A program made the translations under genes and the position numbers. Under the pieces are notes generated by a model. That model made no database searches and had not been told where the DNA came from. It worked only from the letters and a program-made list of their open reading frames with translations. DNA of 64,000 nucleotides from Escherichia phage FEC14: sequence record MG383452. One strand, given 5' to 3'. Shown piece by piece: positions 1,372-63,677 of the stretch. Each line of letters opens with the position of its first letter. Position 1 is the stretch's first letter.

Positions 1372-1397
1372 AAGGGCACTTGATATTTAGTGCCCTT
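1372..1397 (-). terminator. hairpin AAGGGCACT-loop-AGTGCCCTT followed by T-rich tract; loop contains a CTAAATA motif
   Basis: Inverted repeat 3' of the 1402..1686 ORF and about 80 nt 5' of the transglycosylase gene. Confidence 0.4.
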
Positions 1398-1401
1398 CAC
1401 C

Positions 1402-1686
1402 TTATTCGTAGATCAGATGGTATGATTCCTCGATGCATTCCAACCAACCGTAGACAAATTCCATAGGATCATCCCAAGCTGTATTGGAAGCAATAGTGAA
1501 ATCCCCGTCCAAGATTTGCATGTCAGTATATTTGTTGAAACCTAACACGGCATCAACGACTATTAAGCCACCTTGCTCTAGATAACGCTTTGGGGTCAAC
1601 GTCACCTGATAATGTTTGTTTCGCTGATTCCATAACTCGACAGCGATATCACAAGCAATCTGAATTTCATCTTTCTCTTCTGACAT
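1402..1686 (-). CDS. hypothetical protein (94 aa)
   Basis: Minus-strand ORF in co-oriented gene array; no motif recognised. Confidence 0.4.
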   Translation of the reverse strand: MSEEKDEIQIACDIAVELWNQRNKHYQVTLTPKRYLEQGGLIVVDAVLGFNKYTDMQILDGDFTIASNTAWDDPMEFVYGWLECIEESYHLIYE

Positions 1687-1996
1687 ATGTTTGTCTCAAA
1701 TATTCAGTAAAAGATTTACCCAACTTACGGAATAGTTTAATACGACCGATCACTTTGACATAAACATCTCCATGACATGGGCGCGGCTTACACCAGCATC
1801 CCAAGGTCTTTCCATCTAATTCAAGGAGTTCATCTTCGGTGATATCCCCTTCAATCAGGCGCACATACAAGTCGTCTTCAAACAACTCAATACAGTTTCC
1901 CCGCCCGTGGTCTTTGACCTCGAACGGGTTTCCCCATTTGCCAGGACGGCCAATGTAGACGTCGTGTGGTTCCTTCTTGAAGTGGACGACTTTCAT
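1667..1996 (-). CDS. conserved small phage protein with GNPF and C-x-C...C-H Cys/His motif (DUF4326-like, recalled from memory)
   Basis: Motifs GRPGKWGNPF and CWCKPRPCHGD read in translation. Confidence 0.4.
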   Translation of the reverse strand: MKVVHFKKEPHDVYIGRPGKWGNPFEVKDHGRGNCIELFEDDLYVRLIEGDITEDELLELDGKTLGCWCKPRPCHGDVYVKVIGRIKLFRKLGKSFTEYLRQTYVRRER

Positions 1997-2147
1997 ATGA
2001 TTGTATCAGCTAACCAGTATGCTGCCCAAACGCTTACACCACCGTACATAAAACCATAGATAATTTCTCCAGAGTTTATGTGGCGTAAACACATATTCAC
2101 AGAACAAATTGTGATTAAAATCAAAAATACCAAACAAATAGTAGCCA

Positions 2148-2462
2148 TCATGACATATCCTCATAATTAGATAGATTGATCAAGAAGGGCAGGTTCCGGT
2201 CATATATGAGGTCAATGGCCTTGCGGCTACCCACAGCCTCACATGTCCAATAACTGTAATTCCCTGCGATCTTCAATGCTAGTCGGACGACATGACGCCT
2301 CATATTGTACTGAGCCAACTGATATCGGGCGCGTGTCTTCTTGCGCCAGCATTGATTCTCCGCTTTGTACTTGTAGAGGATCATCAGGCGAACGGCTTTG
2401 TACAGGCGCTTTTCAGCGCCCTTGGATTTCTTTGATACACGAATCAGGCTACCCATGATCAA
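2148..2462 (-). CDS. hypothetical basic protein (104 aa)
   Basis: Minus-strand ORF abutting gp46 stop; Lys/Arg-rich; no motif recognised. Confidence 0.35.
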   Translation of the reverse strand: MIMGSLIRVSKKSKGAEKRLYKAVRLMILYKYKAENQCWRKKTRARYQLAQYNMRRHVVRLALKIAGNYSYWTCEAVGSRKAIDLIYDRNLPFLINLSNYEDMS

Positions 2463-4794: not shown

Positions 4795-5910
4795 TTATGC
4801 ATCCAATGTGTTCAAACGTTGTTGGGCAGCATTATAAAATTGTTCTGCAAGTTTGCAAACATTTTCAGGGCGCTGGATATTGTTGGCTGCGCGGATATCA
4901 TTTTTCAAGACTTCTACAGCATCAGTAGCCACCATCTCTTCAGTGACTTCTACCTTCTCGGAAGCAACAGTAATCGTCCGATCGATGAAGTTGTAATCGA
5001 TGCATTTACAGCGCTTCAATGCGTCACAGAACTTTTCATAATGCTTGGCATTGTCACGGTTCTGTACAATCACCTTAACGATTTGCCCTTCAATACCCAA
5101 AACATTGTTTAACCAATCGGGGTCGATCCAATTACCTTCAGTATCAGAAGACATTTGTGTGTAGTCGTATTCCACGAACCGGAACAACGTTTGTTGTTCG
5201 TTGTTGGGGATAAACAATTCCCCGCCATTCATGTCGTCTACATAGAATCCTCGGTTCGTCCCGTCTTTGTGGTCTTCCCAGGTAAGATGATAAGGAGTCC
5301 CAATATACTGAATGTTACCTTCCATCGAACGGGTATGGAAATGTCCGGTATCCACGCGCTCGAATTTCGAAAGGAGCGCCAAGTCGATCTGACCTTTATC
5401 ACATACAGAGGACTGGTACATTTTGAACCCTGCCAACTCCAGATGCGCAAAACAGTACTTGGCGTCTGTATCTTGTATCGCTTTAATGGACGCATCATAG
5501 TTCTCTTTGTTAATCCACGGCAGTAGGAGGGTCTTGACACCTTCAATCATTACTTCAGTTGGTTCGCTGTAATAATGATAAACATCCGGTGCCAATTCAT
5601 TAAGATAAGAAGGCCAGTTAATGCGATTGGACTCTTCTAACGTGATATCATGGTTTCCAACGATGCCATTCCATTTGATACCCGCCTTTCTCAGGGCTGG
5701 CGTTAATTCATCTTTCAACCAATCTTTATCGCGACCATACATGAATTTGCGAACATCAAACGTATCACCAAATTGCCACACTTCTTTAATATCGGCGTCA
5801 ACCAATTCTGGAATAAAATAATTGATGAGATAATTCTTTATGAATTCTCGAACGTAACGGGAACCATTACGGCTCCCGATATGTAAATCGCCAATTTTAG
5901 CAATCGCCAT
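4795..5910 (-). CDS. 47: recombination nuclease subunit gp47 (Mre11/SbcD-like phosphoesterase)
   Basis: Phosphoesterase motifs GDLHIG, GDTFDVRK, VGNHD, GHFH align with T4 gp47 (GDWHLG, GDIFDVRK, VGNHD, GHFH). Confidence 0.9.
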   Translation of the reverse strand: MAIAKIGDLHIGSRNGSRYVREFIKNYLINYFIPELVDADIKEVWQFGDTFDVRKFMYGRDKDWLKDELTPALRKAGIKWNGIVGNHDITLEESNRINWPSYLNELAPDVYHYYSEPTEVMIEGVKTLLLPWINKENYDASIKAIQDTDAKYCFAHLELAGFKMYQSSVCDKGQIDLALLSKFERVDTGHFHTRSMEGNIQYIGTPYHLTWEDHKDGTNRGFYVDDMNGGELFIPNNEQQTLFRFVEYDYTQMSSDTEGNWIDPDWLNNVLGIEGQIVKVIVQNRDNAKHYEKFCDALKRCKCIDYNFIDRTITVASEKVEVTEEMVATDAVEVLKNDIRAANNIQRPENVCKLAEQFYNAAQQRLNTLDA

Positions 5911-6703
5911 TATTTTGTTGCTCCCGTTCTAATGCTCGTTTCTTTGCTTCTTCCCAATCTGGTTCCATAGAACATATTTCGTCTTCCAGATTGAATTGAG
6001 TAGAGCCGAAGTCATAGTCTGAATTATCTTCGGCGTCGGCGGTAATGGTATTTTCACTCTTTGTGAGACATTGAAGTATACCGCGAGGAATTTTCTTATT
6101 CTTTTCCTCTTCTTTGATGGCGATTTGCTTTTGGCGTTCCTTTTCGCGCTGTGCTTCTTTCTTAGTTTCAAAATTTCCGATACGCTCACGGAAGTCCATT
6201 GTTATACCAGTGCTGTCTACGAATGTCTGTTGCTGGAAGTCTGGGTCATCTGATAATGCAGCGAAACCACCTGCTTCTTCAAATGAACGCAACTTGATAT
6301 AATTGTGTTCTTCTTCACTGGTGAGTTTCTTGGCGAATGAACGATCGGCGCACATCGTTACCCAAGAGAAGAAATTGATTTTTCCTTTCTTGCCGATATG
6401 ACTGACGTCAAATGTATGGAGGTAACGAAGAATGTTAACAACGGCCTCACTGACCATGTCTTCGCGGTATGGATAATCACGATAGTTGTAGCGCATACTC
6501 ATGTTCTTAATAATCATCTGAACATTCATGGCCACATAATTGGGGATTCTTGGTAGGGGTGTTCCTTCGGCCAAAGCCTTTTTGCGAGCCGGAATCCAAT
6601 CTCTCAATATTCCAACAACACGGTCATTATCTTCGTCTGTGAAATATTTGGTGACGTTATCACCCCTGTCTACAAAATTCATACCCATCGTGATAATCCT
6701 CAA
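5897..6703 (-). CDS. 55: late-transcription sigma factor gp55-like, with extended charged C-terminal tail
   Basis: Central region (YNYRDY...LHTFD...FAKKLTSEEE) parallels T4 gp55 (FNFSGY...LHNFD...QRIKKERKE); sits directly upstream of gp47 as in T4 (55, alpha-gt, 47, 46). Confidence 0.55.
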   Translation of the reverse strand: MRIITMGMNFVDRGDNVTKYFTDEDNDRVVGILRDWIPARKKALAEGTPLPRIPNYVAMNVQMIIKNMSMRYNYRDYPYREDMVSEAVVNILRYLHTFDVSHIGKKGKINFFSWVTMCADRSFAKKLTSEEEHNYIKLRSFEEAGGFAALSDDPDFQQQTFVDSTGITMDFRERIGNFETKKEAQREKERQKQIAIKEEEKNKKIPRGILQCLTKSENTITADAEDNSDYDFGSTQFNLEDEICSMEPDWEEAKKRALEREQQNNGDC

Positions 6704-12560: not shown

Positions 12561-12581
12561 GGCGGTTTAATAATAACCGCC
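12561..12581 (-). terminator. hairpin GGCGGTT-loop-AACCGCC followed by U-run on minus strand
   Basis: 3' of the 12596..13390 ORF. Confidence 0.45.
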
Positions 12582-12595
12582 CTAATGTTATTGAA

Positions 12596-15861: not shown

Positions 15862-15884
15862 CATTTCAAATAGGCGGGGTAATC
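15862..15884 (-). terminator. hairpin GGCGGGG-loop-CCCCACC, second copy of the repeated cassette
   Basis: Inverted repeat 3' of the 15908..16147 ORF. Confidence 0.4.
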
Positions 15885-15907
15885 ATACCCCACCCTAAGT
15901 TATAGAA

Positions 15908-42416: not shown

Positions 42417-42429
42417 AGCACCGAGGACA

Positions 42430-43482: not shown

Positions 43483-43502
43483 AACCCCGCCGAAGCGGGG
43501 TT
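43483..43502 (-). terminator. intrinsic terminator AACCCCGCCGAAGCGGGGTT 3' of gp18
   Basis: Same 20-mer hairpin as after gp23; followed by T-rich tract on the minus strand. Confidence 0.6.
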
Positions 43503-43510
43503 GGTCATTT

Positions 43511-45406
43511 TTATGAAGCAGCAACGATGCCGCCACCGGATTCGATTTCGCTGAACTCCATATCTGGTCGAACTGCAGCAAAATCCAAATAAATCCAGTT
43601 AATGCTGTACTCAGGCTTCAACCAAATACCAGCAACCATTTGGTTTGCCGCAATGATATCAGCAGTGTTGTTGTCTTCATCACATTTGACTTTACCATCG
43701 TAAATCGCGCCCATATTTGCCAGCTGGCGAATATATGGACGAACCGCATTGCTGAACAGACCACGTGTAAACGCGTCATTGTTCTCACCAAGATAGTATT
43801 TGGCGATTGCGGCGATGTTCTGCTCAGCCATGATGAACAGGCCACGAACGTTGATACGGTCAAACGCCGACGGGCGGGTCAGGCCAGTTTTGTCACCATA
43901 CAGGACGATGCCTTCATTGGAGAAGGTTACGATGCTGTTGATCTGGTTGCGGTACAACACAGCACGTTCATCAGAAGATGCAGACCACGCCATTCGATTA
44001 TAGTTGTTGTATTTACCACGGTTGTGGAACGCCGGAGATTTGTAGATACCCGCGATTTCAATGCTTCGCGCCCAAACACCTGCGGTGCCACCACAAGCCG
44101 GAATCCAACGCATTTTGTCGTTGTACTTGTCGTACACATATGCCCAGTTATCATCCATGAAGAAATAAGAAGAGTCGCGAACAAGGCTTTCACGCCAAGC
44201 AACGACATCATCCATTTCACGACCACGGTTGCCAACAACCGTATCACGGAGCGGGGATACGAAAGATACCGTATCTTTTCGCTCAGTAGATAAGTCGATC
44301 AATGCTTGTTGCTCAATCAGTTCTTCACAGTACGCAAATACTGGCTTCGCATCATATGCTTCAGCATTGTTCAAGACTTGGATAGCTGCCACGCGGTTGA
44401 TGTTATAATCGTCTACGCCGCCTTCTAATTCAACAACACCTGCGGCCAGAGCGGTAGCGAAGGTGTACACCCAATTTGATGTATCATTGATGACATCTTT
44501 GAAGTACGCATTCGCGCCATCGGACTTTTTGGAACCCTGTGTGTTCTGCATGAGTTCGTATTTTTCGATAATAGAACCAGATGCGCCAACAGTGGTAATC
44601 ACGGCGGTTGCAGTCAGCCCCTTATCATCTGGAACAATAGCAGTAACTGTCTGGGGACCAATAGCTTTATGGGTCACGATGACAGTGTTGGACTTCACGA
44701 CAACAGAAGAATAAACACTTGTCAGGGAAGTTAGTGCTGTACCGATTTTGGTTGCCAAATCGGCTGGAGTATCAGTATCCAGATATGCGATATCTTCACC
44801 TGCCACACTGATGGTGCCAGCAGCAGTAGCCGTACCAGAAACGGAGATACGGTCAACCTGACCGACCGCGCCAGCAGAGTCGGTAATGCGACCAACTTTG
44901 TCTACGACAACTACATGGAATTCACCAGACTGAGGTGCGTATGCAAAGTTATTACGGAATTCCCAAGTTGAGAATCCAGCAGCATCACAAACATTGATAG
45001 CAATATCATTACCCAGGGAACCTGGATAACGACCAGTCCAAGTGATGGACGCCGAAGGACTTGCTGTTTCAAAATCCAGTTTGTTTTTGATCGCAATCGC
45101 TGTCTGACCTTTGGTAACAGAGTTCTTGGCCAGAGGACCAACAACACGGGTCACCCATGCCATAGAGCTGTAAGACAAAAAGTCCGCGATTACGAGAAAA
45201 TCGGTCGCAGTACTGTCGTTGGGTTTGAAGAATTTCTTCACCAAACCTGTCTCACCACCAGTCACCAGCACTGGAAGTTCAACTTCACCCCATTGAAATT
45301 TTCCGACGGTCGCGCCCTGAACAACAACGGACGGGGACGTCTGAAGCGTGGCATCACGCTCAGTCCACTGAACGGACGGCGCAACGCTGAAGCTTTGAGT
45401 TGCCAT
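43511..45406 (-). CDS. 18: tail sheath protein gp18
   Basis: GKFQWG motif near N-terminus matches T4 gp18; true start taken as internal ATG (MATQSF) with GAAGGAA RBS, since the track start at 45439 appears to be a non-ATG codon. Confidence 0.9.
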   Translation of the reverse strand: MATQSFSVAPSVQWTERDATLQTSPSVVVQGATVGKFQWGEVELPVLVTGGETGLVKKFFKPNDSTATDFLVIADFLSYSSMAWVTRVVGPLAKNSVTKGQTAIAIKNKLDFETASPSASITWTGRYPGSLGNDIAINVCDAAGFSTWEFRNNFAYAPQSGEFHVVVVDKVGRITDSAGAVGQVDRISVSGTATAAGTISVAGEDIAYLDTDTPADLATKIGTALTSLTSVYSSVVVKSNTVIVTHKAIGPQTVTAIVPDDKGLTATAVITTVGASGSIIEKYELMQNTQGSKKSDGANAYFKDVINDTSNWVYTFATALAAGVVELEGGVDDYNINRVAAIQVLNNAEAYDAKPVFAYCEELIEQQALIDLSTERKDTVSFVSPLRDTVVGNRGREMDDVVAWRESLVRDSSYFFMDDNWAYVYDKYNDKMRWIPACGGTAGVWARSIEIAGIYKSPAFHNRGKYNNYNRMAWSASSDERAVLYRNQINSIVTFSNEGIVLYGDKTGLTRPSAFDRINVRGLFIMAEQNIAAIAKYYLGENNDAFTRGLFSNAVRPYIRQLANMGAIYDGKVKCDEDNNTADIIAANQMVAGIWLKPEYSINWIYLDFAAVRPDMEFSEIESGGGIVAAS

Positions 45407-45448
45407 AATATCATTCCTTCTCGGTAGAGTTTCGCTCAATTTGAAAGA

Positions 45449-45455
45449 TATTTAG
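45449..45455 (-). promoter_or_regulatory. candidate late promoter CTAAATA upstream of gp18
   Basis: Motif about 40 nt upstream of the proposed gp18 ATG, just after the gp17 stop. Confidence 0.45.
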
Positions 45456-45458
45456 TGA

Positions 45459-47669: not shown

Positions 47670-48336
47670 CGTCTTCTTCCTTCACATCAACTGTTTCACC
47701 ATCAATGATTTCATCTTCTGGTTGTTGTGCGGCCTTTGCTTGTGCTCTTTCTTCAGCGCGGCGGCGTGCATCTTCGATCGTCTTCAATAAATCGCGAGAA
47801 GATCGCGCCTTTTTCCCAACCGATACTGTTGTTGTTCCGTCTGGTGAAGTTGTAACATCCACTGTCGTGTCATCAACAGGTGGTTCTTTATCACCTGTTA
47901 CTGCCTTGATGGTTTTCTGGTTTTCCATCAAGTCTTTATTCAGACCTCGCATGAGTTCACCCAATTCACGGAAAACAGAAAATGCTCGCGGAGCTTCTGT
48001 GGATGCAGCCAATTTAGCGGCTTGTCCCATCATGAACATTGTGGCTTCTTGCATGGCATATGTTGTGTCGCGTATCCGTTTGTAATCCGTTGTAGCATCA
48101 GTGTCCGCAAACTCAGGTACTTTGGATTCCTTGGAAGCAATATCCTCCAATGAAGGCGGTTCAGGAATCGGCTGATACCCTTCCGGACGTTCACCAAACC
48201 ATTCACCTGTATTTTCATCGAAGTCAATACCTGGACGAGGGGCGACAGCCTCCATTGCCTCCTTCCCAACTTCGTCTCGGGCAGTCACCGCATCAAGTGT
48301 GGCGAGTAACCTTTCTGACATATTGCTCATGATCAA
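47650..48336 (-). CDS. 16: small terminase subunit gp16
   Basis: Located immediately upstream of and overlapping gp17; central region resembles T4 gp16. Confidence 0.65.
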   Translation of the reverse strand: MIMSNMSERLLATLDAVTARDEVGKEAMEAVAPRPGIDFDENTGEWFGERPEGYQPIPEPPSLEDIASKESKVPEFADTDATTDYKRIRDTTYAMQEATMFMMGQAAKLAASTEAPRAFSVFRELGELMRGLNKDLMENQKTIKAVTGDKEPPVDDTTVDVTTSPDGTTTVSVGKKARSSRDLLKTIEDARRRAEERAQAKAAQQPEDEIIDGETVDVKEEDDGVSEA

Positions 48337-49031
48337 TCCTCCGGATGATGTATGCCGTCTTTATCAACTCGGAACCATTCAGGAAGTTCCGACCATGGCA
48401 TGTTCAAATCATTAGACATTTCAATAATTATCTCTTTGATGACGTTTGGATCCCCACCGCCCGAACCATCATCAACCCAATAATCTTCTCCATAGATGTG
48501 ACCATGTAATTGAAAATTGAATGAACAATCTATGTGTGGTGATTCTGTTGCGTCTCCTTCCCAGTTGTCAGAAATCGTGTGATTTACCAACATTATCTTC
48601 ACGTTCTGATCTTGAGATAAAGTGTCGTTGTCCTTTATCTGACAGTCAACAGAAGGAGTGAACACAGAATAAATTTGTTCCAACACCTGTAGCATTTCGA
48701 CCAGTTTCTTCGTTCTGATGTTATATTCAAAATCTATAATGATCGGAATTCGTTGTTTGGACCGCGCAGTTGCAGTCGATATCTGATTATGATACGACTT
48801 GGTCACCTGTTTATTGATTTCGAACTGACCAAAGGACATTGTTGCAAATGGCAGCATATTGGCTGGCACGTTCCTGTTGAGGTCATTACGGCGGCCAATG
48901 GCCATATGCAGCGGGATTTCCATCAAGCCACGTTCGGTTTTGACTTTTAAATCCGACATGATAGCGTTGAAAACATGGATATATTTCAACAACGATTCAT
49001 GGTAGAAATATTTTTCAAATGGTCTGGCCAT
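48333..49031 (-). CDS. 15: tail sheath stabiliser / tail completion protein gp15
   Basis: N-terminal region parallels T4 gp15; position between gp14 and gp16. Confidence 0.6.
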   Translation of the reverse strand: MARPFEKYFYHESLLKYIHVFNAIMSDLKVKTERGLMEIPLHMAIGRRNDLNRNVPANMLPFATMSFGQFEINKQVTKSYHNQISTATARSKQRIPIIIDFEYNIRTKKLVEMLQVLEQIYSVFTPSVDCQIKDNDTLSQDQNVKIMLVNHTISDNWEGDATESPHIDCSFNFQLHGHIYGEDYWVDDGSGGGDPNVIKEIIIEMSNDLNMPWSELPEWFRVDKDGIHHPED

Positions 49032-49033
49032 GA

Positions 49034-49675
49034 TTATTCCCCGAAGTCTATCTTCATTTTATTGGGCGAAAGATCTTTCTCTATTTCGTCCGCAAATTGG
49101 TTATCCGTTTGCAGGCTGGCGTCTTTGTACACACCGTCTCCTTCCAGATCCTGCAATCGTTTATCGATATCGTCTATTTCAGATACACCTGTATCGAAAT
49201 CTTCGTTACCGTATTGGAACAACGTACATGGTAGGGAATATGTGTACCATTTCCCAAATTGCATGAATTCTTCATCGTTGTTCGGGTTATTCACTTTAAA
49301 TATTTTGTTAGCCATAGGCAGATATATCAAATCACCTTCTTGAGGCATTTGTTCAAGGCCTGGACCATTACCAATAACTTCTGAAAAACGACGACGAGCA
49401 ATAGTGAAGGTCACTTCATCTTGTAATTGGATACCGCCGAACTTTTCCCACATCTGTGTGTTGAAGCCTTGATAATCCTGCATATACACTTCGATGTCAA
49501 ACGCTTGGTCGAATTTGTGTTCGGCCTCGTTTAAAATTGGGTATTTTTCAACAATAGAACGTGGGATATACTTGACGTCAATCCCACGCAATTGTATCAT
49601 CTCGACCACCAAGTCATCAATTAATTTTTGAGTACCTTGATGTGCTGTATAGTTGAAATATTTTGAAGTAGCCAT
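49034..49675 (-). CDS. 14: neck protein gp14
   Basis: Position between gp13 and gp15; MAT... N-terminus; preceded by CTAAATA motif and GAGGG RBS. Confidence 0.55.
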   Translation of the reverse strand: MATSKYFNYTAHQGTQKLIDDLVVEMIQLRGIDVKYIPRSIVEKYPILNEAEHKFDQAFDIEVYMQDYQGFNTQMWEKFGGIQLQDEVTFTIARRRFSEVIGNGPGLEQMPQEGDLIYLPMANKIFKVNNPNNDEEFMQFGKWYTYSLPCTLFQYGNEDFDTGVSEIDDIDKRLQDLEGDGVYKDASLQTDNQFADEIEKDLSPNKMKIDFGE

Positions 49676-49698
49676 GACTTTACCCTCAATTTTGAAGG

Positions 49699-49705
49699 TA
49701 TTTAG
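49699..49705 (-). promoter_or_regulatory. candidate late promoter CTAAATA upstream of gp14-gp17 operon
   Basis: Motif about 25 nt upstream of gp14 ATG. Confidence 0.45.
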
Positions 49706-49736
49706 TCAATCATTAATTCTTTTGAGGAATTGATAA

Positions 49737-49949
49737 ATGAAGGTTGAAGATATTAAAGAAACTCGTGACGGAAGGCGTGTGAGAATTATCTGTGTAGATG
49801 CTAAAATCGCCGATGGTTCATATAACATTGTGGGTCTTATCAAAGGCGAAAAGGATAATGATTTTATTGAATGGTGGGACGAAAAGAACGTGGTTGATGG
49901 TTATATTCTAGCAAATTCAGATCCTTCCGGACGCGACATCAAGTTATAA
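49737..49949 (+). CDS. small plus-strand protein (70 aa) embedded in the late operon
   Basis: GAGGAA RBS 9 nt before ATG; followed by a bidirectional hairpin. Confidence 0.45.
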   Translation: MKVEDIKETRDGRRVRIICVDAKIADGSYNIVGLIKGEKDNDFIEWWDEKNVVDGYILANSDPSGRDIKL

Positions 49950-49954
49950 AAAGA

Positions 49955-49972
49955 AAGGCGGGATAACCCGCC
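49955..49972. terminator. bidirectional hairpin AGGCGGG-ATAA-CCCGCCT between the plus-strand small gene and gp13
   Basis: Inverted repeat between convergent genes. Confidence 0.45.
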
Positions 49973-49977
49973 TTCTC

Positions 49978-50787
49978 TTATCCCATCATAAAATCGATAG
50001 GGTATTGCTGACCAGTACGCAATTCTTCCTCCAGCCGCTCTATCTCGGTCTCGGCCTCACTGAACATACTATCACCATCCAGTTCGATACCACCAGGGAG
50101 ACGGATGCCTCTTGCCTTCTTAAGCACCTCTGCCCAACGGCGCTTGACCAATGCAGTCGCATACGCTTTCAACCACATATCATTCCATGCTTCAGCGTTT
50201 TCTTCCGATTCGGGGTCGATATTTTGATAACAACGAAAAGCCAGAGTTTCATCAACAATGGCAGCAAACTGCGGGTAAAGGCGTCGCTGGAACTTCTTGT
50301 ACACAAAATTACGGCGAACATTTAAGACGCTTGTGATATCCGACAGGCGTTGTTGCATGGAAACATAATCAATGAGACGAATAGAAACCAGCGCTGCTTT
50401 GGGGACAAGCATTGCTTGAGCCATTTGCCATTGAGGAGTTGCCCAGTTTCCGATTGACTCAATAGGAGGTCCAGGGATAACTTCAATCACATCGTCAATA
50501 TCATCGGGAAATTCTATATATCCCTTGTCGATATCTTCTTGTTTAACTTGGTACAGGAAGAACGCATCTTGGCTACCATCACGATGATATTCCCAAAATT
50601 TCTGCAGAGCATCATCGACTGCATCTTCGACTTGTGAACTGTCAAGGTTAATTTGGATCACAGGAGCGCCCAATTTACGCAAGACATAATTCATAAAAGA
50701 TTTTTTGTCTCGAATCTTATTGACGGCCATTGTTATTCCCCTTTTGCTGCAAATCAGATACAGTAATCCGCAGTGTGCGAACATCAT
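49978..50787 (-). CDS. 13: neck protein gp13
   Basis: Position upstream of gp14 in the T4 order 13-14-15-16-17; 269 aa. Confidence 0.55.
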   Translation of the reverse strand: MMFAHCGLLYLICSKRGITMAVNKIRDKKSFMNYVLRKLGAPVIQINLDSSQVEDAVDDALQKFWEYHRDGSQDAFFLYQVKQEDIDKGYIEFPDDIDDVIEVIPGPPIESIGNWATPQWQMAQAMLVPKAALVSIRLIDYVSMQQRLSDITSVLNVRRNFVYKKFQRRLYPQFAAIVDETLAFRCYQNIDPESEENAEAWNDMWLKAYATALVKRRWAEVLKKARGIRLPGGIELDGDSMFSEAETEIERLEEELRTGQQYPIDFMMG

Positions 50788-51329: not shown

Positions 51330-51342
51330 CTTTCAACATTAT

Positions 51343-54300
51343 TTATGCCAGAGCAATAAGACGGAAGTCTTTAAATGAAGGAGGAGCAACGCGGTTCCCC
51401 CGTACAAGCGCTCGGACTTTCAGGCCAACAAACGGGTTATTGCTCGCCACAGTCTTGTCATACTCATATTCAAAGAATGTGGAACCGTCGTTAACCAGAG
51501 GCGAAGTTGGGGTGACGTCTTCCCAAGCCACACTATCCATCTCTTGCCCTGCTCGTAGAAGTTTCACCTGCACCTTCATCGAAGACTGAGATGGGAGCAT
51601 TGCACCAAAGAACAACTTCACAGTAGAACACGGATTATCAAATCCGATGTCCTTTGTCACGTATTTGAAGACATCTTCAAATGGATCCACACCGTATGAG
51701 TTGAAGATTACGCTCAGGTCATCGCCATCAATCATTGGAGCAGTGTACACGTTGTTTTCACTACGCGTCATGGTGGCTCGGATTTGGAAATCCCCGACCT
51801 GACGATAGATACCTTCAGTCGGCAATGCCACGTCAGTGTCAGTTTCAAACTCAGCCCAATCAGACATAGAATTTGAAGTGGCATCGCGATAACGGTATTC
51901 CAATTTCAGAATTGAACCTTCCAGAGCCGAATTGGTAACGCTGGCATAGAACATATCAACCAGATAATTGCCCAAGAAAGAAGCATTATCTCCACCGATT
52001 TGTCCATTGCTGTCTGCTGCCGTACCGACGTCAATCTTGAATGAAGTATAGCTCGCATCTGTCACAGTAAACGTTTTGTTAAGTTGTTCAGGAGTAAAGC
52101 CACAACCGCCTGTCAATTCAGAAAGAGTGACATTGTTCCCAGCAACCAAACCATGACCAGGTGCAAACACAGTCACAACAGAAGACCCGCTTACGCAGTT
52201 CAGAGTGTTCAATCCCAACGGACGTTGTTTTGGCCCGAGCTTCGGATCAAATGTTACAACGTTCTGTCCAGCCGCAAAGTTGCAACGATATATGCGGAAT
52301 TTCATATCGGCCATTTGGTTCGGAGACCATGTAGAACCGTTTGAAGAAGTGAAGAACACCCCTGTATACGGTTGTTTGGCGATATATTCGTTGGACAGAA
52401 GGTTTTTCTTGCCCATTTCCGCGATATACGCGTTGTAATCCTGAGTATTCGCCAACAAAACGATAGCAAACTCAGTCGATGCTTGCAGATACACCGGATA
52501 ATCAAAGGTGAACTTCGTACCGCCGGAAGAGTCTGTAGAGATCGTCACTTCAGACGGGTTCAAAGTTTTACGAGTAATGACTGTATGAGAAGGTAAGCCA
52601 TTCTCCATCTCGCGAATTTCCAGAGTGATCGGAACATCACGTGACTTGGTAGAGAAGAATACTTCCACGCCTTCGATATACTCGCCGCCATTCTTAGTCG
52701 CCACCATAAACGATTGGGCAATCGGATCACGCCATTGATCAACAACCACTTCAGAAGTAGAAGTTTCGGTGCGAGTACTAGCAGTGTAACCCAGGACACG
52801 AGTGTTGACAAAGGTCTTTTGAATACCTTGTTTCTTACCGAAAGATTTATGAACAATTTCTGCATTGGTCAGTGTATCATCCGCAGATTTACTGTCAACA
52901 GGGCTATCCGTTAAGCGGAACACGTTGTCACCTGTGTTGAACTTGATTGTATCGTTCTGTGGAACGCGGAATACACCTTTAACAGCACCATTGGCATCAG
53001 TGGTGATTGGGTCACCGAAATTACCACCATTCGGTTTGCAATACAGATTGACGTCACGACCAGAGAAGAACGCATACATACGAGTGAAAGGTCGCAGTCC
53101 AGATGCGTCGAAAGAAATATCGATCTCGCGCATGTATGGGATAACTTGCGTCTCCACAATCTGTTCGCCAGTCATGGTCGTGGTTGTTTTGTCCGTGTAT
53201 GTATATGTGGTGACATCACGGGCAGAAACAGTCGTGCGGTAACGATATCCCCACCACACACCACCAGCACCATGCGGCTCCCAAACACGATCAGAAACAG
53301 AAACAGTCCGCCATGTTCCGTACACTGAACCTTCTTGTACAGTACCACGGGTGTTGATCGTTTCATTGATAATACGCGGTGCAACATAATAGTTTTCGAA
53401 CCAGTAGTCTGTGGTCGGGTTAATCTTCAAGAAACCTTCCCAATTGAATACTGCATACGGGTTAACGTTGATCGTCGTCGTCGCATATTCTTGGTTCACT
53501 GAGATTTCAGGCGTGTAATTGCAAACCACCATCCCATCCATCACTTTGTTCCAGCCAACAGGAGTCATGTCAACAACGTTCTGTTGTACAAACGGGCGTA
53601 GACGTCCGTTTTCGGTATCGATAGAACCCATCCAATCTTCAGACAAGTCATCAATCAACCGGAAGTCTTTGAACGGATCAGCTGCAATACCATTTTTGAA
53701 ACGAGGATTACCCGTGATGGGGTCAAACACTTGCTGTGTCATCGCTGAAGATTCCAGCTGTGACAGAGAGGTATAGTATTCAACATTGGAAATACGGGTT
53801 TCCAGTTTACCGATATCGCGCATTGTATAACGACGATTATCAATAGTTCGAATTTGGATATCATCAATATTCGGTGTATACGGCGGGATCAACAATTCAT
53901 ACAAACGCATGGCGTTCGCTGGGATTGCTGGAGAAGCCAGATTATTAGAACTGATGCCTCGAGCCACACCAAACACGCCGTTGTCTGCCAGATAAATCGC
54001 GTCGATACGCGGCAGATAATATTCTGTGTCCAGAATAACTGCAGTGTTTGGACGTACCATATCTGTGTCAGAAGTTCCGTTGGTGATTTTCGGACGGAAA
54101 TCTAAACTATCTGCCAGGCCGTACACCGCGCCTGATGTAGAAGATGTATAATTCGGGATATCTTTATAATCCATCGAAGTATACGAATCAGCAGAGAAGA
54201 AATCACCGGAACTGTGGGCGAAGTATTGATACACCACTGTATACGTCCCTGAGATTGCTCCAGCGCTGGATAACAAGTTAGACTTGTAATACCCTGCATC

Positions 54301-56214: not shown

Positions 56215-56221
56215 TATTTAG
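56215..56221 (-). promoter_or_regulatory. candidate late promoter CTAAATA upstream of the 1612-aa gene
   Basis: Motif about 35 nt upstream of ATG. Confidence 0.45.
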
Positions 56222-58580: not shown

Positions 58581-58611
58581 AATAAGAATCTCCTGTTTTT
58601 CTCTAGTAAAT

Positions 58612-58630
58612 ACCCTCCGAAGAGGGGTAT
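58612..58630 (-). terminator. hairpin ACCCTC-CGAAGA-GGGGT between the 926-aa and 744-aa tailspike genes
   Basis: Inverted repeat immediately 3' of the 926-aa gene; AGGAGA RBS of the next gene follows. Confidence 0.4.
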
Positions 58631-58634
58631 ATTT

Positions 58635-61415
58635 TTAAATAGAAGAATCCAATATACGGTAACTAATTAACTTAGTAGGGTCTACAGGATTAATCAGGTT
58701 GTAGTACCGTGAAGCTACATAATCATTCTCAGAAGAGAACATACCAACATACACTTTAGCACCTACACCAGAACAGGCATCCCCACCAGCATTGCTATCC
58801 GAGAAGAATGTTAATGAAGAAGTTAATCCGAATATAGAATTAAATGGTACAGCTAAATAAGCGCCTCGGAATGACCGTCTGATTCTCTTACCCGTCTGAA
58901 TATTAAGAATACTCCACCAGAAATATCCAGGTTTAGCACCAATAGCTATATGATATGGCACACCACTTTGTAGTTTAAGGTCGTTAGGTAAATCCCCAGA
59001 TAAAATTTGGGTTGTACCATCGCCCCCCAATAGCAAAGCAATTGTTTGTTTTCCAGAAGCGTCTATAACTAATTGAAGATGAAGACTGTTGGATGTATCA
59101 CTAAACCCTGAACCAATGGCCATGAAGTTAAATACTTCAGCTCCAGATATGGTGGGTACTACAACAGCAGCCATGGTAATACCTTCTGGACCTGCTGTTC
59201 TTGAATACAGTAATTTATCTTTGTTGGCTTGTGATAGTCTCAGACCATTTACTTGCCCTACAGAAGATGGGACACTTACATAAACAGGTGTAGTGCTAAC
59301 ACCATCAAATGTAGGGGTCTCGTTCATGGTTTGCAAACCAGTCTTGGAATAATTAACCAATCCGTTAATGCTCAGGTCGGAATTGGTGGGGTTGATAATA
59401 TTGTTATCACCAATAAAGTTAATGCCCATATAACCAGTCTCAACCACACCATTAATGGTGACACTACAATCATTAGACAGGAACTGAAAATTGCCTGCAC
59501 TAGAGTTAGCACCTGAACCACTATTCGCGGCATAATTGAGTCCTACGAATCCGTTGATAACTGCATCACTTTTGTTAAATACGATGTTGTAGAAAGTGTT
59601 GTTAGCATTGATGCCGTTACGATTGGTGTTCAATCCGTTCATGGAAATTGAATATGACTCGCTAATCTCAATACCATTCCCGCCACAATCTTGTACCTCA
59701 ATACCATTAATAACCATATTCTGGCTGTTATTAATAGTAATGCCTGGAAACTGTCCTACTGTACCATAAGGTTGCCAGTTAGCCCAAATGAATTTACCGC
59801 CAATAATACGACCATTACCACAACCATCAAGAACTAGACATTGTTTACCGCAGGTATTAACCTGGATATTTGTCCAAGTCCAATCAGTAGTAGCACAACG
59901 GACACCCACCTGATTGATGTGGTTGACTAAAAGAGAATCTGTAGTAACACTAAAGTTACCACTATCAATATTTAACCCATATTCATCAAAACCTGCTATA
60001 TGGACCTTAGAAATACACAAGTCCCGTCTTGGGTCTGCGGTAGTGTGGAACGGATAATCGGCTGAGAGACCTGAAGGAGTTTCTACATAGATACCTGTTG
60101 TGCCCGCAGTAAATGACGTGCCTTGTTGTGCACCTGTGCCATATACCCCAAAGGCGTCTAATACAATAAGGGAGCATGTATCTTTTATGGTAATACAATT
60201 CCCAGTAGCAGAAGGCAACTGATGCAACCTTGAGTAATGTAATCCAGACCCATAAATAGACGACGTATTATATTTTAACTGGATATTGCTAACGTAATGT
60301 ACACCAGTTAATTGTGTGGCCTTACCACTATCCACACAAGATTGTACTGGAATAGTATCATCATTAGAACCACCCAAAGCACCAAACATGAATGGGTTAA
60401 CTCTATCAGCATTAACACGTAACCATGCTGCGCCGCCAACAGTTTTGATCACAGTACCGTTATTATCAGTCTTTCCTGTACCATCAATTAACGCACGGAA
60501 TACCCCTCCACCAAGAAGAGTACCCGCAGTGTGTTGCTTAAGAATAATGCGTTGTCCATCCATAGTGGGTTCAGTATTCCTGAGATCAGCAACAGAATGG
60601 CATTCTCCAATATACTTGGCACCATCATTGCGCCCCAGAGTGTTTATCACATTAATAAATGAATCTTCTAAAGGCAACAAATCAACCTGCACATCACCTG
60701 GGTTGTAATTCAATTTCCCAGCAGATACAGAAGAAATGACAGAACCATCAGGAATGGTTGGTAAACCATAACTGGTTTGCGTCGCTATATCATAAACAAC
60801 TTTCTTCCCATCCAACAAAGATATGGTGTCCGTACTAACGATGACTTCAGAGTCTTTTACATTAGCAGAACGGGCGATTTCTTGAATACTTCGGTCAAAC
60901 GCCGGACTGATATTCGGTTGTTTAACAGACATTTCAGCGACTACCCAAACGCCTGCAGTCAGTGCAGTTTGCAAAGACACTTTCCCTGTCGTGCTGTTAT
61001 AGGAATATTCAATTTCGGGTGTTTTGTACTCGCCACCGATATAAAGAGATTGGACACCATAGGATGTGAAATCAGGAGTGAACTCGGTTTCACCCCCTAC
61101 GGCTTGAAATTTGTATATGCGGATACCTTTGGCTGTATCTTCTGGCGAAAGAATTTTATCGAATAAGCAATACACAACATCGCCTTTGGACAATGCGCGC
61201 CCGAGATTCAACGTATTTCCTTCGATTTCAAAGTTGTCTAACGGAACTTGCATACCACCGTTGATTGTGACTACGCCAGTGACAGGATAGAACGGCAAGG
61301 AAAGGAAAGTTTCTCCACCAACATTTGATTTATACGTGAAAGGAATCTGGTGGGGAGCTGTGATTACGCCGCCGAATAATTCTTCTACATTTCTGGTCAT
61401 TTGAAAATACCCCAT
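58635..61415 (-). CDS. tailspike protein with parallel beta-helix (depolymerase-like) domain (926 aa)
   Basis: Repetitive Asn/Gly/Ile-rich rungs (e.g. NGIEISESYSISMNGLNTNRNGINANN) typical of right-handed beta-helices; distinct N-terminus from neighbours. Confidence 0.7.
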   Translation of the reverse strand: MGYFQMTRNVEELFGGVITAPHQIPFTYKSNVGGETFLSLPFYPVTGVVTINGGMQVPLDNFEIEGNTLNLGRALSKGDVVYCLFDKILSPEDTAKGIRIYKFQAVGGETEFTPDFTSYGVQSLYIGGEYKTPEIEYSYNSTTGKVSLQTALTAGVWVVAEMSVKQPNISPAFDRSIQEIARSANVKDSEVIVSTDTISLLDGKKVVYDIATQTSYGLPTIPDGSVISSVSAGKLNYNPGDVQVDLLPLEDSFINVINTLGRNDGAKYIGECHSVADLRNTEPTMDGQRIILKQHTAGTLLGGGVFRALIDGTGKTDNNGTVIKTVGGAAWLRVNADRVNPFMFGALGGSNDDTIPVQSCVDSGKATQLTGVHYVSNIQLKYNTSSIYGSGLHYSRLHQLPSATGNCITIKDTCSLIVLDAFGVYGTGAQQGTSFTAGTTGIYVETPSGLSADYPFHTTADPRRDLCISKVHIAGFDEYGLNIDSGNFSVTTDSLLVNHINQVGVRCATTDWTWTNIQVNTCGKQCLVLDGCGNGRIIGGKFIWANWQPYGTVGQFPGITINNSQNMVINGIEVQDCGGNGIEISESYSISMNGLNTNRNGINANNTFYNIVFNKSDAVINGFVGLNYAANSGSGANSSAGNFQFLSNDCSVTINGVVETGYMGINFIGDNNIINPTNSDLSINGLVNYSKTGLQTMNETPTFDGVSTTPVYVSVPSSVGQVNGLRLSQANKDKLLYSRTAGPEGITMAAVVVPTISGAEVFNFMAIGSGFSDTSNSLHLQLVIDASGKQTIALLLGGDGTTQILSGDLPNDLKLQSGVPYHIAIGAKPGYFWWSILNIQTGKRIRRSFRGAYLAVPFNSIFGLTSSLTFFSDSNAGGDACSGVGAKVYVGMFSSENDYVASRYYNLINPVDPTKLISYRILDSSI

Positions 61416-61434
61416 AAAGGATTTGCCAATATGG

Positions 61435-61441
61435 GGTATTT
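61435..61441 (-). promoter_or_regulatory. candidate late promoter CTAAATACCCCAT upstream of the 926-aa tailspike
   Basis: Part of an about 50-nt module nearly identical to that upstream of the 710-aa tailspike. Confidence 0.45.
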
Positions 61442-61505
61442 AGGCTGAACTAATAAAATTTATAATAAGATCCCCCCGCTTTTGGCGAGGAGGGATGGTT
61501 GTTAA

Positions 61506-63638
61506 TCATATCAATCCGTAAATGACATTGTGTATTGCGATACCACCAACAATAGAGGAAACATTGAAATTAATTTCAGCTTTGTAAGCTCCTGGCGGAA
61601 CGCAATCCACCAAAGCATAAAAGTTGAACGTGTTTCCTACTGGGATGTTATATCCTATGGAATCCGCGACAGCATTTCCTTGCTGGTCCAGGAATCTAAT
61701 TGATGCCAGGGTGGTGGTTGTATTTTTAGCCCAAAAACCAAGTTGAAAATAACGCCCAGGCTCACAGTCAATGATTGTCTGGGTGAAATTAGCCGCTGCA
61801 CCCACTGATGGTACGGATAAGACAAAAGAAGTTGAAAACATTAAATCATTAGGGACATCATTTCCTACAGTAGCGGTGACAACGCCGGATCCAGTTTGTG
61901 ACAGCGCCCAGTTAGATATATTATTAAACTGTCCTGAACCGTTACTAATACTGTTTATATGAGGGCTTACAATGCATCCTAAATCCCAGTTACTTGTGAT
62001 AAATCCTGCGCGTGGATAGCAACCTCTAGACATTACTTTTTTACTTAATCCGCCTATCAACTGCCTTGTGGCAAATCCAGTAGCAATCGTTGTATTCCCA
62101 TAGAGTGGTAGCGAACAATTATTTAGAATAACAACCCCATCCCCGTTGTTTACAATAGGTACTGTAGAATAATCATTTGGCAACAGTATCGTCGAATCAC
62201 TGATGCTTAATCGTGAACTACCATCCACAGTAAACCCAACGAAACTCTGACCTGGTTGATACTCAATGTTACCGTTTGTGAAAACCATAGTTGCGTTATC
62301 AGATAACGCGACAACAGGGTCAAAATATCCTGATTTTTTACCTGCTGGCAGAGAGCAGCTATCGAATATAAATTGACCATTAACAAACGTGAAAGGTCCA
62401 CCGTTGTCAACCATCCAACAATGATTAAATTTTATAACCTCACCGGAATTCGCTGGTGAATTGAAAATAACAGAATTTGTAAAACTTCTGGACAACGTAC
62501 ATTTATCAAAAAGAATACGATATGCATTATCAAGAAACTCAATTCCGGCAGTTGAGATAAACCCGCAATTAGATATTCTTAACTCTGAGACTTCTCCACT
62601 GGTAGAACCACCGATCGCCAATTTCCTGGTCCCTTTTCCAACAAATGACACTCCAGTCATTAACGCAGTTGCGTTAATTACATCTCTATTGGTGTAATCC
62701 GTGTCTGTATTAACAATGGTTAGATAGTAGCCGCCCGTTGCAGATGCAGATTCTATTAGAGTACATTTATTTTTTCCAATAAGTGCACCTTTTGCTATAT
62801 CAAAAATAATCGGTGTTGTTATCTCACCAGAAACAGGGACTACACAGTCAAATCCGACGGCATTTATTTTATTGATGAATATAGCCAAATCTCCGGTTCC
62901 TGTATAACCAGCTTCGTACACATCCACCACACCGTTGAATAATTTCCTTTTCCAAACGACACCATTGCCTTGGAAAGTAACGATATTATCTACCACAGTA
63001 TCTGAGTTAACAGCCACCATAACACCGCCACCAAGATTAAACCCGTCAACATACGAATCAAGAATTATAGAATCACCAATTAATCCTGCTATTGATGATA
63101 ATTCAGAAACTGATGATACGGTTCCTATATAAGATAAGCCATTCGGTTTATTTAAATTACTTTTCAGAGATGCAACACCAACACTCAACCATGCACCTAA
63201 ACCAACGCCACCAGATGTTTCAGGTGTTGAGCCAGCATCGACAGTTTTAGGAAGTGAACCATCCCATCGATATTTTTTATCATCGTGAACAAGAAGTTCA
63301 TTTTTCACATTAATGATATGGCCGAAATTAAAAGAACCAGGTAAAGTCACATATTCTTCGCGGCTTACTGCTAATTCCCCAAGGTCAACAGAGCCAGCGG
63401 AATGAGTGAGGATGGCTTGTTCGTTCAGGCTTATCGCAGTCGTTCCTGAAACAATACCCGAAGGAAGAGAATAAGCCCGTTGGGTAGACTCATCATAAAT
63501 TACTTTAAATCCACCGAGATCAATACCGACAGTGAAATAAATGACTTCGTCTTCTTTGACACCGAAATTTCGAGCGATAGATTGTTTGTTAACTTCTATG
63601 GAAGTGGAGCCGCGTGGTTGATTGAATTGAGAAATCAT
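61506..63638 (-). CDS. tailspike protein with beta-helix domain (710 aa), sharing N-terminal anchor domain with the 744-aa tailspike
   Basis: N-terminal about 150 aa about 60 percent identical to the 744-aa protein (QPRGSTS...KVIYDESTQRAYSLP...GSVDLGEL...YRWDGSLPK). Confidence 0.7.
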   Translation of the reverse strand: MISQFNQPRGSTSIEVNKQSIARNFGVKEDEVIYFTVGIDLGGFKVIYDESTQRAYSLPSGIVSGTTAISLNEQAILTHSAGSVDLGELAVSREEYVTLPGSFNFGHIINVKNELLVHDDKKYRWDGSLPKTVDAGSTPETSGGVGLGAWLSVGVASLKSNLNKPNGLSYIGTVSSVSELSSIAGLIGDSIILDSYVDGFNLGGGVMVAVNSDTVVDNIVTFQGNGVVWKRKLFNGVVDVYEAGYTGTGDLAIFINKINAVGFDCVVPVSGEITTPIIFDIAKGALIGKNKCTLIESASATGGYYLTIVNTDTDYTNRDVINATALMTGVSFVGKGTRKLAIGGSTSGEVSELRISNCGFISTAGIEFLDNAYRILFDKCTLSRSFTNSVIFNSPANSGEVIKFNHCWMVDNGGPFTFVNGQFIFDSCSLPAGKKSGYFDPVVALSDNATMVFTNGNIEYQPGQSFVGFTVDGSSRLSISDSTILLPNDYSTVPIVNNGDGVVILNNCSLPLYGNTTIATGFATRQLIGGLSKKVMSRGCYPRAGFITSNWDLGCIVSPHINSISNGSGQFNNISNWALSQTGSGVVTATVGNDVPNDLMFSTSFVLSVPSVGAAANFTQTIIDCEPGRYFQLGFWAKNTTTTLASIRFLDQQGNAVADSIGYNIPVGNTFNFYALVDCVPPGAYKAEINFNVSSIVGGIAIHNVIYGLI

Positions 63639-63670
63639 GATAATACCCCATAAAGGATGACCAATATGGG

Positions 63671-63677
63671 GTATTTA
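63671..63677 (-). promoter_or_regulatory. candidate late promoter CTAAATACCCCAT upstream of the 710-aa tailspike
   Basis: Second copy of the shared upstream module. Confidence 0.45.

Follow-up and report, generated by a model that had tools for sequence, protein, structure and literature searches.

In the Kuttervirus phage FEC14, the heptamer CTAAATA very probably serves as the -10-like core of late promoters, judging from its arrangement in the genome. The motif is best read as a variant T4-type late promoter that depends on gp55, because it lacks a -35 element, is biased towards structural genes, and occurs in phages that encode gp55, gp33 and gp45 homologues. A variant of the T4 late promoter had been suggested in a sequence-only reading of the same DNA, and this is now supported by the placement of the motif, its structural-gene bias, its conservation across genera, and the presence of gp55, gp45 and gp33. 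The analysis was carried out in silico throughout and covered a window of 64,000 nucleotides of sequence record MG383452 (hereafter, the window), the CBA120 genome, and loci of other genera. The window is a segment of a Kuttervirus (Ackermannviridae) with 97-99% identity to phages CBA120 and JN03, and FEC14 is affiliated with the CBA120/ViI-like phages. Matching of CBA120 proteins yielded a gene map of 74 genes, 72 of them on the minus strand, with 93% of the sequence coding; a search of the whole window for Rfam families found none.

Placement of CTAAATA relative to start codons

Exact copies of CTAAATA number 12 in the window, 11 of which are on the minus (gene) strand. Shuffled sequences held 7.1 +/- 2.4 copies on both strands, and the total count alone is thus not significant; because it is at chance level, significance rests on placement only. 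Nine of the 12 copies are sense-oriented and lie 23-78 nt upstream of start codons, and three are intragenic (797-803 and 62120-62126 in sense, 58853-58859 in antisense orientation). When all 7-mers in the window were ranked by enrichment 10-80 nt upstream of starts, a zone that makes up 4.1% of the window, CTAAATA ranked first (9/12, P=6.5e-11), and the corresponding ranking for the complete CBA120 genome likewise put it first (18/25, P=2.6e-19). Furthermore, NTAAATA is rarer inside coding regions than in synonymous-codon shuffles. Strand and start-distance statistics, which the sequence-only reading had named as a check, therefore bear the observation out, as does the pyrimidine that it described after the motif, which directly follows CTAAATA at 9/9 upstream sites.

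Sites upstream of FEC14 genes

The sites described below are all on the minus strand. CTAAATA had been reported upstream of gp22, a gp67-like ORF, gp18, gp14, the 1612-aa gene and two tailspike genes, and each of these copies was located in sense orientation: 28 nt upstream of the gp22 scaffold gene (39448-39454), 27 nt upstream of a 56-aa ORF in the gp67 position that precedes gp68 (40666-40672), 42 nt upstream of the gp18 sheath gene (45449-45455), 23 nt upstream of the gp14 neck protein gene (49699-49705), 33 nt upstream of the 1612-aa structural gene (DUF4815; 56215-56221), 36 nt upstream of the tailspike TSP2 homologue (61437-61443), and 33 nt upstream of the 710-aa tailspike gene (63672-63678), with CTAAATAcccc at the last two. 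The span originally given for the sites was off by one base at both ends, and the list, real as its entries are, missed the copy 26 nt upstream of the UvsW helicase gene (30505-30511). The copy reported in a hairpin ahead of the transglycosylase gene is at 1384-1390, in a terminator-like hairpin loop, and orf114 (SLT transglycosylase domain) begins 78 nt downstream. This copy is kept in CBA120 at 63460 and is the weakest promoter candidate. Of the intragenic copies, CTAAATAtcttcaac at 797-803 lies inside orf114 with the start of orf113 108 nt downstream, and has a 15-mer in common with the CBA120 gp6 promoter candidate; it is possibly an internal late promoter or a chance copy.

The proposal that CTAAATA stands in place of the T4 consensus held in part: CTAAATA is the main motif, but two exact copies of TATAAATA are also found in promoter position, 22 nt upstream of orf171 (DUF7217; 33696-33703) and 31 nt upstream of orf173 (33907-33914). 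Other variant cores were missing from the earlier list. CTAAGTA precedes the gp23 major capsid gene by 40 nt (38529-38535) and orf160 by 30 nt (26107-26113), and overlaps the gp62 stop codon at the latter site; orf160 encodes a RegA homologue according to the annotations of phages JA15, KpS110, phiEa2809 and YC. CTAATTA is used 25 nt upstream of the gp20 portal gene (42388-42394) and 31 nt upstream of the gp19 tail tube gene (42995-43001), and ATAAATA is found 49 nt upstream of orf208 (51340-51346).

In CBA120, a motif site precedes 15 of 28 structural genes versus 3 of 34 early/middle homologues (Fisher P=1.7e-4), and none was found before DinG, gp46 or gp44, in agreement with the original observation. 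A few motif sites precede non-structural genes. The 744-aa tailspike gene and gp3 are examples of structural genes with no recognisable variant directly upstream.

Motif core and flanking sequence

Within CTAAATA, change is tolerated only at position 1 (C/A) and position 5 (A/T/G), and the fuller consensus is [C/A]TAA[A/G/T]TA, equivalent to T4 positions -12 to -6. For the variant CTAATTA, 4/8 copies in CBA120 fall within the upstream zone. When 33 CBA120 sites were aligned with flanks from -45 to +30, every flanking position carried <=0.35 bits, indicating that no -35 element accompanies the core. A published 3' extension, cCcc, was found only at both tailspike sites (cccc), at orf171 (ccccc) and partly at gp14 (cctt), and it serves as a hairpin 5' arm at this hairpin-bearing subset of sites, not as a general feature of the motif.

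These alignments bear on whether the motif might be a -10-like element read independently of gp55 by the host sigma-70 polymerase or a phage-modified form of it. TAAATA resembles TATAAT, and weak sigma-70-like matches overlap two sites (56232-56203 and 39447-39418); however, such matches occur at those two sites only, barely above shuffle expectation, and the 33 sites share neither a conserved -35 element nor a TG extension. In addition, both the invariant C/A-T-A-A core and the bias towards structural genes agree with promoters of the gp55 type, while other genes are marked by a separate motif of the TTCAAT-N14-TATAAT type (PMC7283392). A sigma-70 reading is hence very unlikely. This early-type pattern is only marginally enriched in the FEC14 window.

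Conservation across the Ackermannviridae

The same 7-mer ranking in loci of other phages placed CTAAATA first in Dickeya JA15, Klebsiella KpS110, Serratia 3M and Erwinia phiEa2809, and second in Vibrio phage YC, where CTAAGTA ranked first. Upstream of orthologous genes (UvsW, gp23, gp22, gp20, gp19, gp18, gp14 and the 1612-aa gene) the motif is kept while its flanks have diverged, and this conservation covers six Ackermannviridae genera. The UvsW site is conserved in JA15, KpS110, 3M and phiEa2809, the heptamer ahead of the 1612-aa gene is kept in five other genera with differing flanks, and ACTAAATA is found 20-24 nt before gp14 in 10/10 Ackermannviridae-like loci. Variant cores are retained at some orthologous places and exchanged at others: the regA site reads CTAAGTA in JA15, KpS110 and phiEa2809; the gp23 site reads CTAAGTA in JA15 and KpS110 and CTAAATA in 3M, phiEa2809 and YC; and CTAAATA replaces CTAATTA ahead of gp20 in 3M and phiEa2809 and ahead of gp19 in phiEa2809.

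Candidate protein factors

The presumed reader of the motif is a homologue of the late sigma factor gp55, encoded at 5897-6688 on the minus strand (PHROG 234, E=1.6e-53). The 263-aa protein shows 18% identity to T4 gp55 in a weak BLASTP match and matched nothing in Pfam, NCBIfam or PDB sequences, so that its identity as gp55 comes from PHROGs and that BLASTP match only. A homologue of the gp45 sliding clamp, which activates late transcription in T4, is encoded at 27600-28268 on the minus strand (PHROG 223, E=1.5e-65; weak Pfam gp45-slide_C match), and a homologue of the T4 co-activator gp33 (PHROG 254, E=4e-23), whose gene is outside the FEC14 window, was identified with the CBA120 protein. 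Inspection of the gp55 C-terminus by eye revealed no T4-like clamp-binding motif of the SLDFLYEAND type, in a half of the protein where the alignment is unreliable; given this and the 18% identity, any clamp coupling is putative.

In a comparison with the pocket of T4 gp55 in PDB 7D7C (PMC7892883), FEC14 and enterobacterial Ackermannviridae carry F and W in place of H95 and Y97. A pocket-residue explanation for the C at -12 was dropped, as the gp55 of Aeromonas phage Aeh1 keeps H95 and Y97 and yet Aeh1 has the same CTAAATA consensus; with Y also kept in a Vibrio Ackermannviridae phage, there is no simple residue-to-base rule. The gp55 of YC was not found in two YC loci (about 50-119 kb of the genome). 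The -8 equivalent, the base flipped into a pocket by T4 gp55, varies between A, G and T, with G preferred in YC, which hints at a relaxed or altered gp55 pocket.

Another phage regulator could in principle bind such a motif in DNA or mRNA, for instance a translational repressor like RegA or an FmdB-family protein encoded next to gp33, and the motif does sit within 5' leaders near ribosome-binding sites. The distance from motif to ATG, however, ranges from 22 to 78 nt, unlike that of a translational operator, and the motif matches known late-promoter consensuses. Moreover, if T4 spacing holds, the late mRNA would begin downstream of the motif and would not contain it. A role as the site of such a regulator is extremely unlikely.

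Hairpins and terminators at the sites

Several sites overlap strong hairpins. At orf171, the 3' end of TATAAATA is the 5' arm of a strong hairpin (dG -16.6, z -2.65); at gp14, the 3' end of CTAAATA forms the 5' arm of a hairpin in which the GAGGG ribosome-binding site is paired (z -3.85); and the TSP2 and 710-aa tailspike sites are the 5' arms of hairpins of -18.8 kcal/mol (z -5.96) and -19.6 kcal/mol (z -5.94), respectively. The hairpin at UvsW is weaker (z -1.8), and the same layout as at orf171, gp14 and the tailspike genes is seen in CBA120 at RuvC, a functional analogue of T4 gene 49. The promoter-proximal segment pairs with the ribosome-binding-site zone at 18/30 CBA120 sites compared to 106/472 control segments; outside Kuttervirus this pairing is weaker (22/48 versus 192/684, P=0.013), and in Serratia 3M the association is absent. 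Overall leader folding energy did not differ between motif and non-motif leaders (P=0.18), and the enrichment is limited to pairing between the promoter-proximal segment and the ribosome-binding site.

The motif could in principle be a by-product of intergenic hairpins that act as terminators or in RNA stability or processing, with ATA-CCCC kept only as a stem. In addition to the overlaps above, the motif lies inside a terminator-like hairpin loop at 1384 and at CBA120 58671. Most leaders, however, are unstructured (gp23, gp22, orf192, gp18 and the 1612-aa gene have z ~ -1 or higher), the unpaired CTAA is conserved as well as the stem bases, and the hairpins that overlap the motif are not called as terminators. 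Separate canonical terminators are already present upstream of the sites at gp23 (38566-38549, just before the site), TSP2 (61492-61472), the 710-aa tailspike gene (63744-63709) and gp14. An origin of the motif as a hairpin by-product is therefore highly improbable. Canonical terminators just upstream of several sites mean that transcription must restart there.

Discussion

Late promoters of T4 consist of an 8-bp TATA box without a -35 element (PMC2988020), and the FEC14 sites share with them an AT-rich -10-like element, again without a -35 element, before virion genes (PMC2988020, PMC7892883). CTAAATA and ATAAATA are identical at 6/7 positions and differ only at the -12 equivalent, the FEC14 window itself holds the two exact T4-type copies, and homologues of gp55, gp33 and gp45 exist in the FEC14 lineage. 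The systems differ in that the FEC14 motif prefers C over A at the -12 equivalent, where T4 has a flipped adenine that stacks on Y97, and in that the -8 equivalent tolerates A, G or T in FEC14-type sites. That the motif depends on gp55, that it acts late and where transcripts begin are inferred. Late in infection, host RNA polymerase with the phage gp55-like sigma factor would open DNA at the motif with no -35 contact, probably assisted, by analogy with T4, by gp33 and the gp45 sliding clamp. With a start point about 6 nt past the motif, the head, neck, tail, baseplate and tailspike genes would have leaders of roughly 15-45 nt, and so would a few non-structural genes, namely UvsW and regA as well as RuvC elsewhere in the genome. 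A search of the literature found no mapped transcript 5' ends reported for Ackermannviridae.

The statement in the sequence-only reading that a CTAAATA late promoter exists in distant T4-like phages proved accurate, since CTAAATA, starting at -12, is the in-silico late-promoter consensus of Aeh1 (PMC1524935, PMC2988020). Aeh1 (Nolan et al. 2006) resembles FEC14 in having CTAAATA upstream of late-gene orthologues and a divergent gp55; it differs in belonging to the Straboviridae and in the two retained pocket residues. Because these residues are kept in Aeh1 gp55 and not in that of FEC14, the preference for CTAAATA in the two phages probably arose on different protein backgrounds.

The motif CTAAATAcCcc was reportedly introduced by Adriaenssens et al. 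(2012, Arch Virol 157:2035). It is one of two regulatory motifs of Ackermannviridae ('Viunalikevirus') (PMC7283392), and the FEC14 motif is the same, in the same family, with nothing essential differing. In the GenBank record of LIMEstone1 (HE600015), TAAATA within cTAAATA is annotated as 'putative late promoter' before gp22, gp19 and gp18; the site orthologous to that of FEC14 gp22 bears the annotation of a late promoter -10 signal. CTAAATA is accordingly the already described late-promoter motif of the ViI-like phage family; the observation is correct and ordinary, and no new question is opened, because both motif and interpretation are in the literature and the GenBank record. What is added here are the variants CTAAGTA, CTAATTA and ATAAATA and the confinement of cCcc to hairpin-bearing sites.

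In T4, the genes e, soc, 49 and I-TevI have their late promoter within the 5' strand of a hairpin, and this hairpin masks the ribosome-binding site (PMC3014915). The sites at orf171, gp14 and both tailspike genes, and weakly that at UvsW, similarly pair the 3' end of the motif with a G-rich ribosome-binding site, and a late transcript would lack the 5' arm, assuming T4 spacing. The association is only moderate outside Kuttervirus, and with canonical terminators ahead of the tailspike sites, heavy read-through is less obvious. Tentatively, and with rather more doubt than confidence, we suggest that about one third of Kuttervirus-like late promoters lie within the 5' arm of a ribosome-binding-site hairpin, such that only transcripts from the late promoter would be translatable, and read-through transcripts from upstream would be translationally masked. 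The genes named in this suggestion are the tailspike genes, gp14, gp6, orf171, UvsW and RuvC.

Altogether, the late-promoter map is confirmed by unbiased statistics and cross-genus footprints, and it is refined by the variant cores at gp23, gp20 and gp19, by the hairpin-embedded subset, and by a different preferred base in the Vibrio member. Phages of the CBA120, ViI and LIMEstone group are widely used for biocontrol and tailspike engineering, and the map is useful for annotation and for designing insertions of late-expressed reporters or payloads. If true, the embedding of promoters in hairpins would mean that the device known from T4 e, soc, 49 and I-TevI is employed throughout the family, and would account for the cCcc that extends the published motif.

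Enrichment of CTAAATA upstream of start codons

Genes were carried over to the window via protein matching from the complete annotated genome of phage CBA120, which gave a map of 74 genes, 72 of them on the minus strand, with 93% of the sequence coding. Positions 38000-50000 (12 kb) share 99.1% identity with Escherichia phage vB_EcoM_JN03 and 97.4% with CBA120, and match 287 phage records, nearly all from Ackermannviridae. The gene order begins with orf113, orf114, gp46, gp47, gp55, DinG, gp62, gp44, gp45, UvsW, UvsY and gp3, followed by the head/neck/tail module (gp23 to gp13), a 1612-aa structural gene and three tailspike genes. The 710 nt between gp45 and UvsW (28269-28978) are gene-free in the CBA120 annotation; a plus-strand ORF of 121 aa at 28608-28973 is probably an unannotated gene, and a plus-strand hypothetical gene is annotated at this position in Dickeya JA15 and Klebsiella KpS110.

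The heptamer CTAAATA occurs 12 times in the window, 11 times on the gene strand, a total that is not above the shuffle expectation (7.1 +/- 2.4). Nine copies, however, are sense-oriented and lie 23-78 nt 5' of start codons, namely those of orf114 (SLT domain), UvsW, gp22, the 56-aa ORF before gp68, gp18, gp14, the 1612-aa gene and two tailspike genes (the TSP2 homologue and the 710-aa tailspike). When every 7-mer was scored for occurrence 10-80 nt upstream of starts, a zone of 4.1% of positions, with no motif chosen beforehand, CTAAATA was top for enrichment both in the window (9/12, P=6.5e-11) and in the complete CBA120 genome (18/25, P=2.6e-19). A motif search combined with the gene map confirmed every site named in the sequence-only reading, which had overlooked the UvsW site; its statement that the heptamer is absent before DinG, gp46 and gp44 also held, with no copy upstream of any of the three.

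Throughout the CBA120 genome, the sense strand of genes contains fewer NTAAATA words of every kind than synonymous-codon shuffles predict (e.g., ATAAATA, 1 observed vs 11.2 expected; TTAAATA, 6 vs 13.1), which fits avoidance of spurious minimal promoters, although other biases could contribute. One copy inside orf114 (797-803, minus strand) reads CTAAATAtcttcaac, a 15-mer that it shares with the gp6 promoter candidate of CBA120. This copy is located 108 nt before orf113 (DUF7270) and may represent an internal late promoter and not a chance occurrence.

Variant cores

Single-base variants of CTAAATA were scanned in the CBA120 genome for their share in upstream position. Change was tolerated at positions 1 (C, 18/25 upstream; A, 8/17) and 5 (besides A, T with 4/8 and G with 3/7) only, giving the working consensus [C/A]TAA[A/G/T]TA. 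In the window, this consensus adds CTAAGTA sites at gp23 (major capsid gene) and regA, which lie 40 nt and 30 nt upstream, respectively; gp20 and gp19 are each preceded by CTAATTA, and orf208 by ATAAATA. Over -45 to +30 of 33 CBA120 sites, information is confined to the heptamer, indicating that there is no -35 element. The heptamer had been proposed to stand in place of the exact T4 late-promoter consensus, TATAAATA; the T4 form has only two copies in the window, both in promoter position, before orf171 and orf173, and is thus a minority variant rather than absent.

Association with late genes

In CBA120, a site lies directly upstream of 15 of the 28 genes that are structural T4 homologues or have known virion roles, compared to 3 of the 34 early/middle homologues (Fisher P=1.7e-4). 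The three are RuvC, UvsW and regA; in T4, expression of both uvsW and gene 49 (which corresponds functionally to RuvC) is late. The motifs of gp23, gp14, the 1612-aa gene and both tailspike genes each have a canonical GC-rich terminator a short distance 5', at points where transcription must restart.

A second upstream-enriched word family, TTCAATAA (19/44 upstream in CBA120), is placed before small non-structural genes, both CBA120 genome-wide and on the minus strand of the window (e.g., 12570-12595, 15882-15907 and 36777-36802). Its published counterpart is TTCAAT[N14]TATAAT, which is presumed to be an early promoter of sigma-70-like type and, as a full pattern, is only marginally enriched in the window.

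Conservation in other Ackermannviridae

Structural-region loci of 40-48 kb were compared from Dickeya JA15, Klebsiella KpS110, Serratia 3M, Erwinia phiEa2809 and Vibrio YC, with genes predicted by a simple gene caller that had been checked on CBA120. CTAAATA was the top-ranked 7-mer in the first four; in YC, CTAAGTA ranked first and CTAAATA second. Motif sites in these genera are orthologous to each other. In the region preceding the 1612-aa gene, for instance, six genera have nothing in common except the heptamer and the ribosome-binding site. All ten Ackermannviridae-like gp14 loci taken from IMG/VR have ACTAAATA 20-24 nt upstream of the ATG. YC cores in upstream position comprise 5/10 CTAAGTA and 3/3 CTAAATA (examples at 37049, 30738 and 24141 of the fetched locus, minus strand). 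This preference of YC for CTAAGTA indicates that the base equivalent to T4 -8 differs within Ackermannviridae; a gp55 gene was not found in two YC loci covering ~50-119 kb of its genome.

The gp55 homologue

The window encodes a gp55 homologue of 263 aa (5897-6688, minus strand), the presumed reader of the motif. It has a match to PHROG 234, 'late sigma transcription factor' (E=1.6e-53), is 18% identical to T4 gp55, and has no sequence match in Pfam, NCBIfam or PDB. Also encoded in the window is gp45 (PHROG 223), while gp33 (PHROG 254) is encoded by CBA120 outside the window range. In the T4 open complex, gp55 flips the non-template -12, -9 and -8 bases into pockets formed by N13, L54, R57, F86, H95, Y97 and T99 (PMC7892883), and the variable heptamer positions 1 and 5 correspond to -12 and -8. 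Alignment with T4 gp55 showed that F86, R57 and T99 are kept, with F107 in place of H95 and W109 in place of Y97. However, the gp55 of phage Aeh1 keeps H and Y with the same CTAAATA consensus, and therefore no specificity determinant can be named. At 78 aa longer than T4 gp55, the window protein carries a C-terminal extension that is acidic and rich in lysine, and a T4-like C-terminus for clamp binding is not evident.

Hairpins over the ribosome-binding site

Five of the 14 window sites are embedded in a stable hairpin: the motif's 3' end, together with the bases that follow, makes up the 5' arm, and the G-rich ribosome-binding site makes up the 3' arm (folding energy -7 to -20 kcal/mol; z-scores -1.8 to -6). 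These sites belong to orf171, gp14, both tailspike genes and, with a weaker hairpin, UvsW. T4 late transcripts start ~6 nt after the promoter element (PMC2988020); if this spacing applies, late transcripts from the embedded sites would lack the 5' arm. T4 genes e, soc, 49 and I-TevI are known to have the same promoter-in-hairpin arrangement (PMC3014915). At least four promoter-proximal/ribosome-binding-site pairs were present at 18/30 CBA120 sites compared to 106/472 control segments, and at 22/48 sites compared to 192/684 controls in the other genera (P=0.013), with the effect absent in Serratia 3M. Judged from sequence, the 'cCcc' tail seen in the published CTAAATAcCcc motif is probably due to this embedded subset.

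Upstream of the Holliday-junction resolvase gene RuvC in CBA120 (44251-44257), CTAAATAccc lies within a -15 kcal/mol hairpin that pairs the ribosome-binding region of RuvC, a layout that parallels how T4 gene 49 (endonuclease VII) is known to be regulated. The 744-aa tailspike gene has no CTAAATA-type core upstream (58581-58634), where a comparable ATACCCCTCTTCGGAGGGTAT hairpin follows TTTAAAAATATA; its promoter may be more degenerate, or it may share a transcript with the tailspike gene that precedes it.

Relation to described late promoters

For Aeh1, a late promoter CTAAATA starting at -12 was derived by Nolan et al. 2006 (PMC1524935) and is cited by Geiduschek and Kassavetis 2010 (PMC2988020). 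The late signal of the ViI family was 'not yet identified' in Kutter et al. 2011 (PMC3184105), and the LIMEstone1 paper lists 33 putative late promoters (PMC3296691). In the LIMEstone1 GenBank record, TAAATA inside cTAAATA is labelled 'minus_10_signal, putative late promoter', and the annotated promoters upstream of gp22, gp19 and gp18 are orthologous to window sites. The Ackermannviridae motif was reportedly introduced by Adriaenssens et al. 2012. No paper in the literature searched contained both 'Ackermannviridae' and 'transcription start sites'.

Taken together, upstream enrichment, association with structural genes and conservation across genera support the late-promoter interpretation, and CTAAATA is an already described, in-silico putative late-promoter motif of Ackermannviridae. 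To this known motif, the present data make small additions: variant cores at key genes, a hairpin-embedded subset, and the rank of CTAAATA as the top upstream 7-mer in CBA120 and four other genera and as the second in YC.
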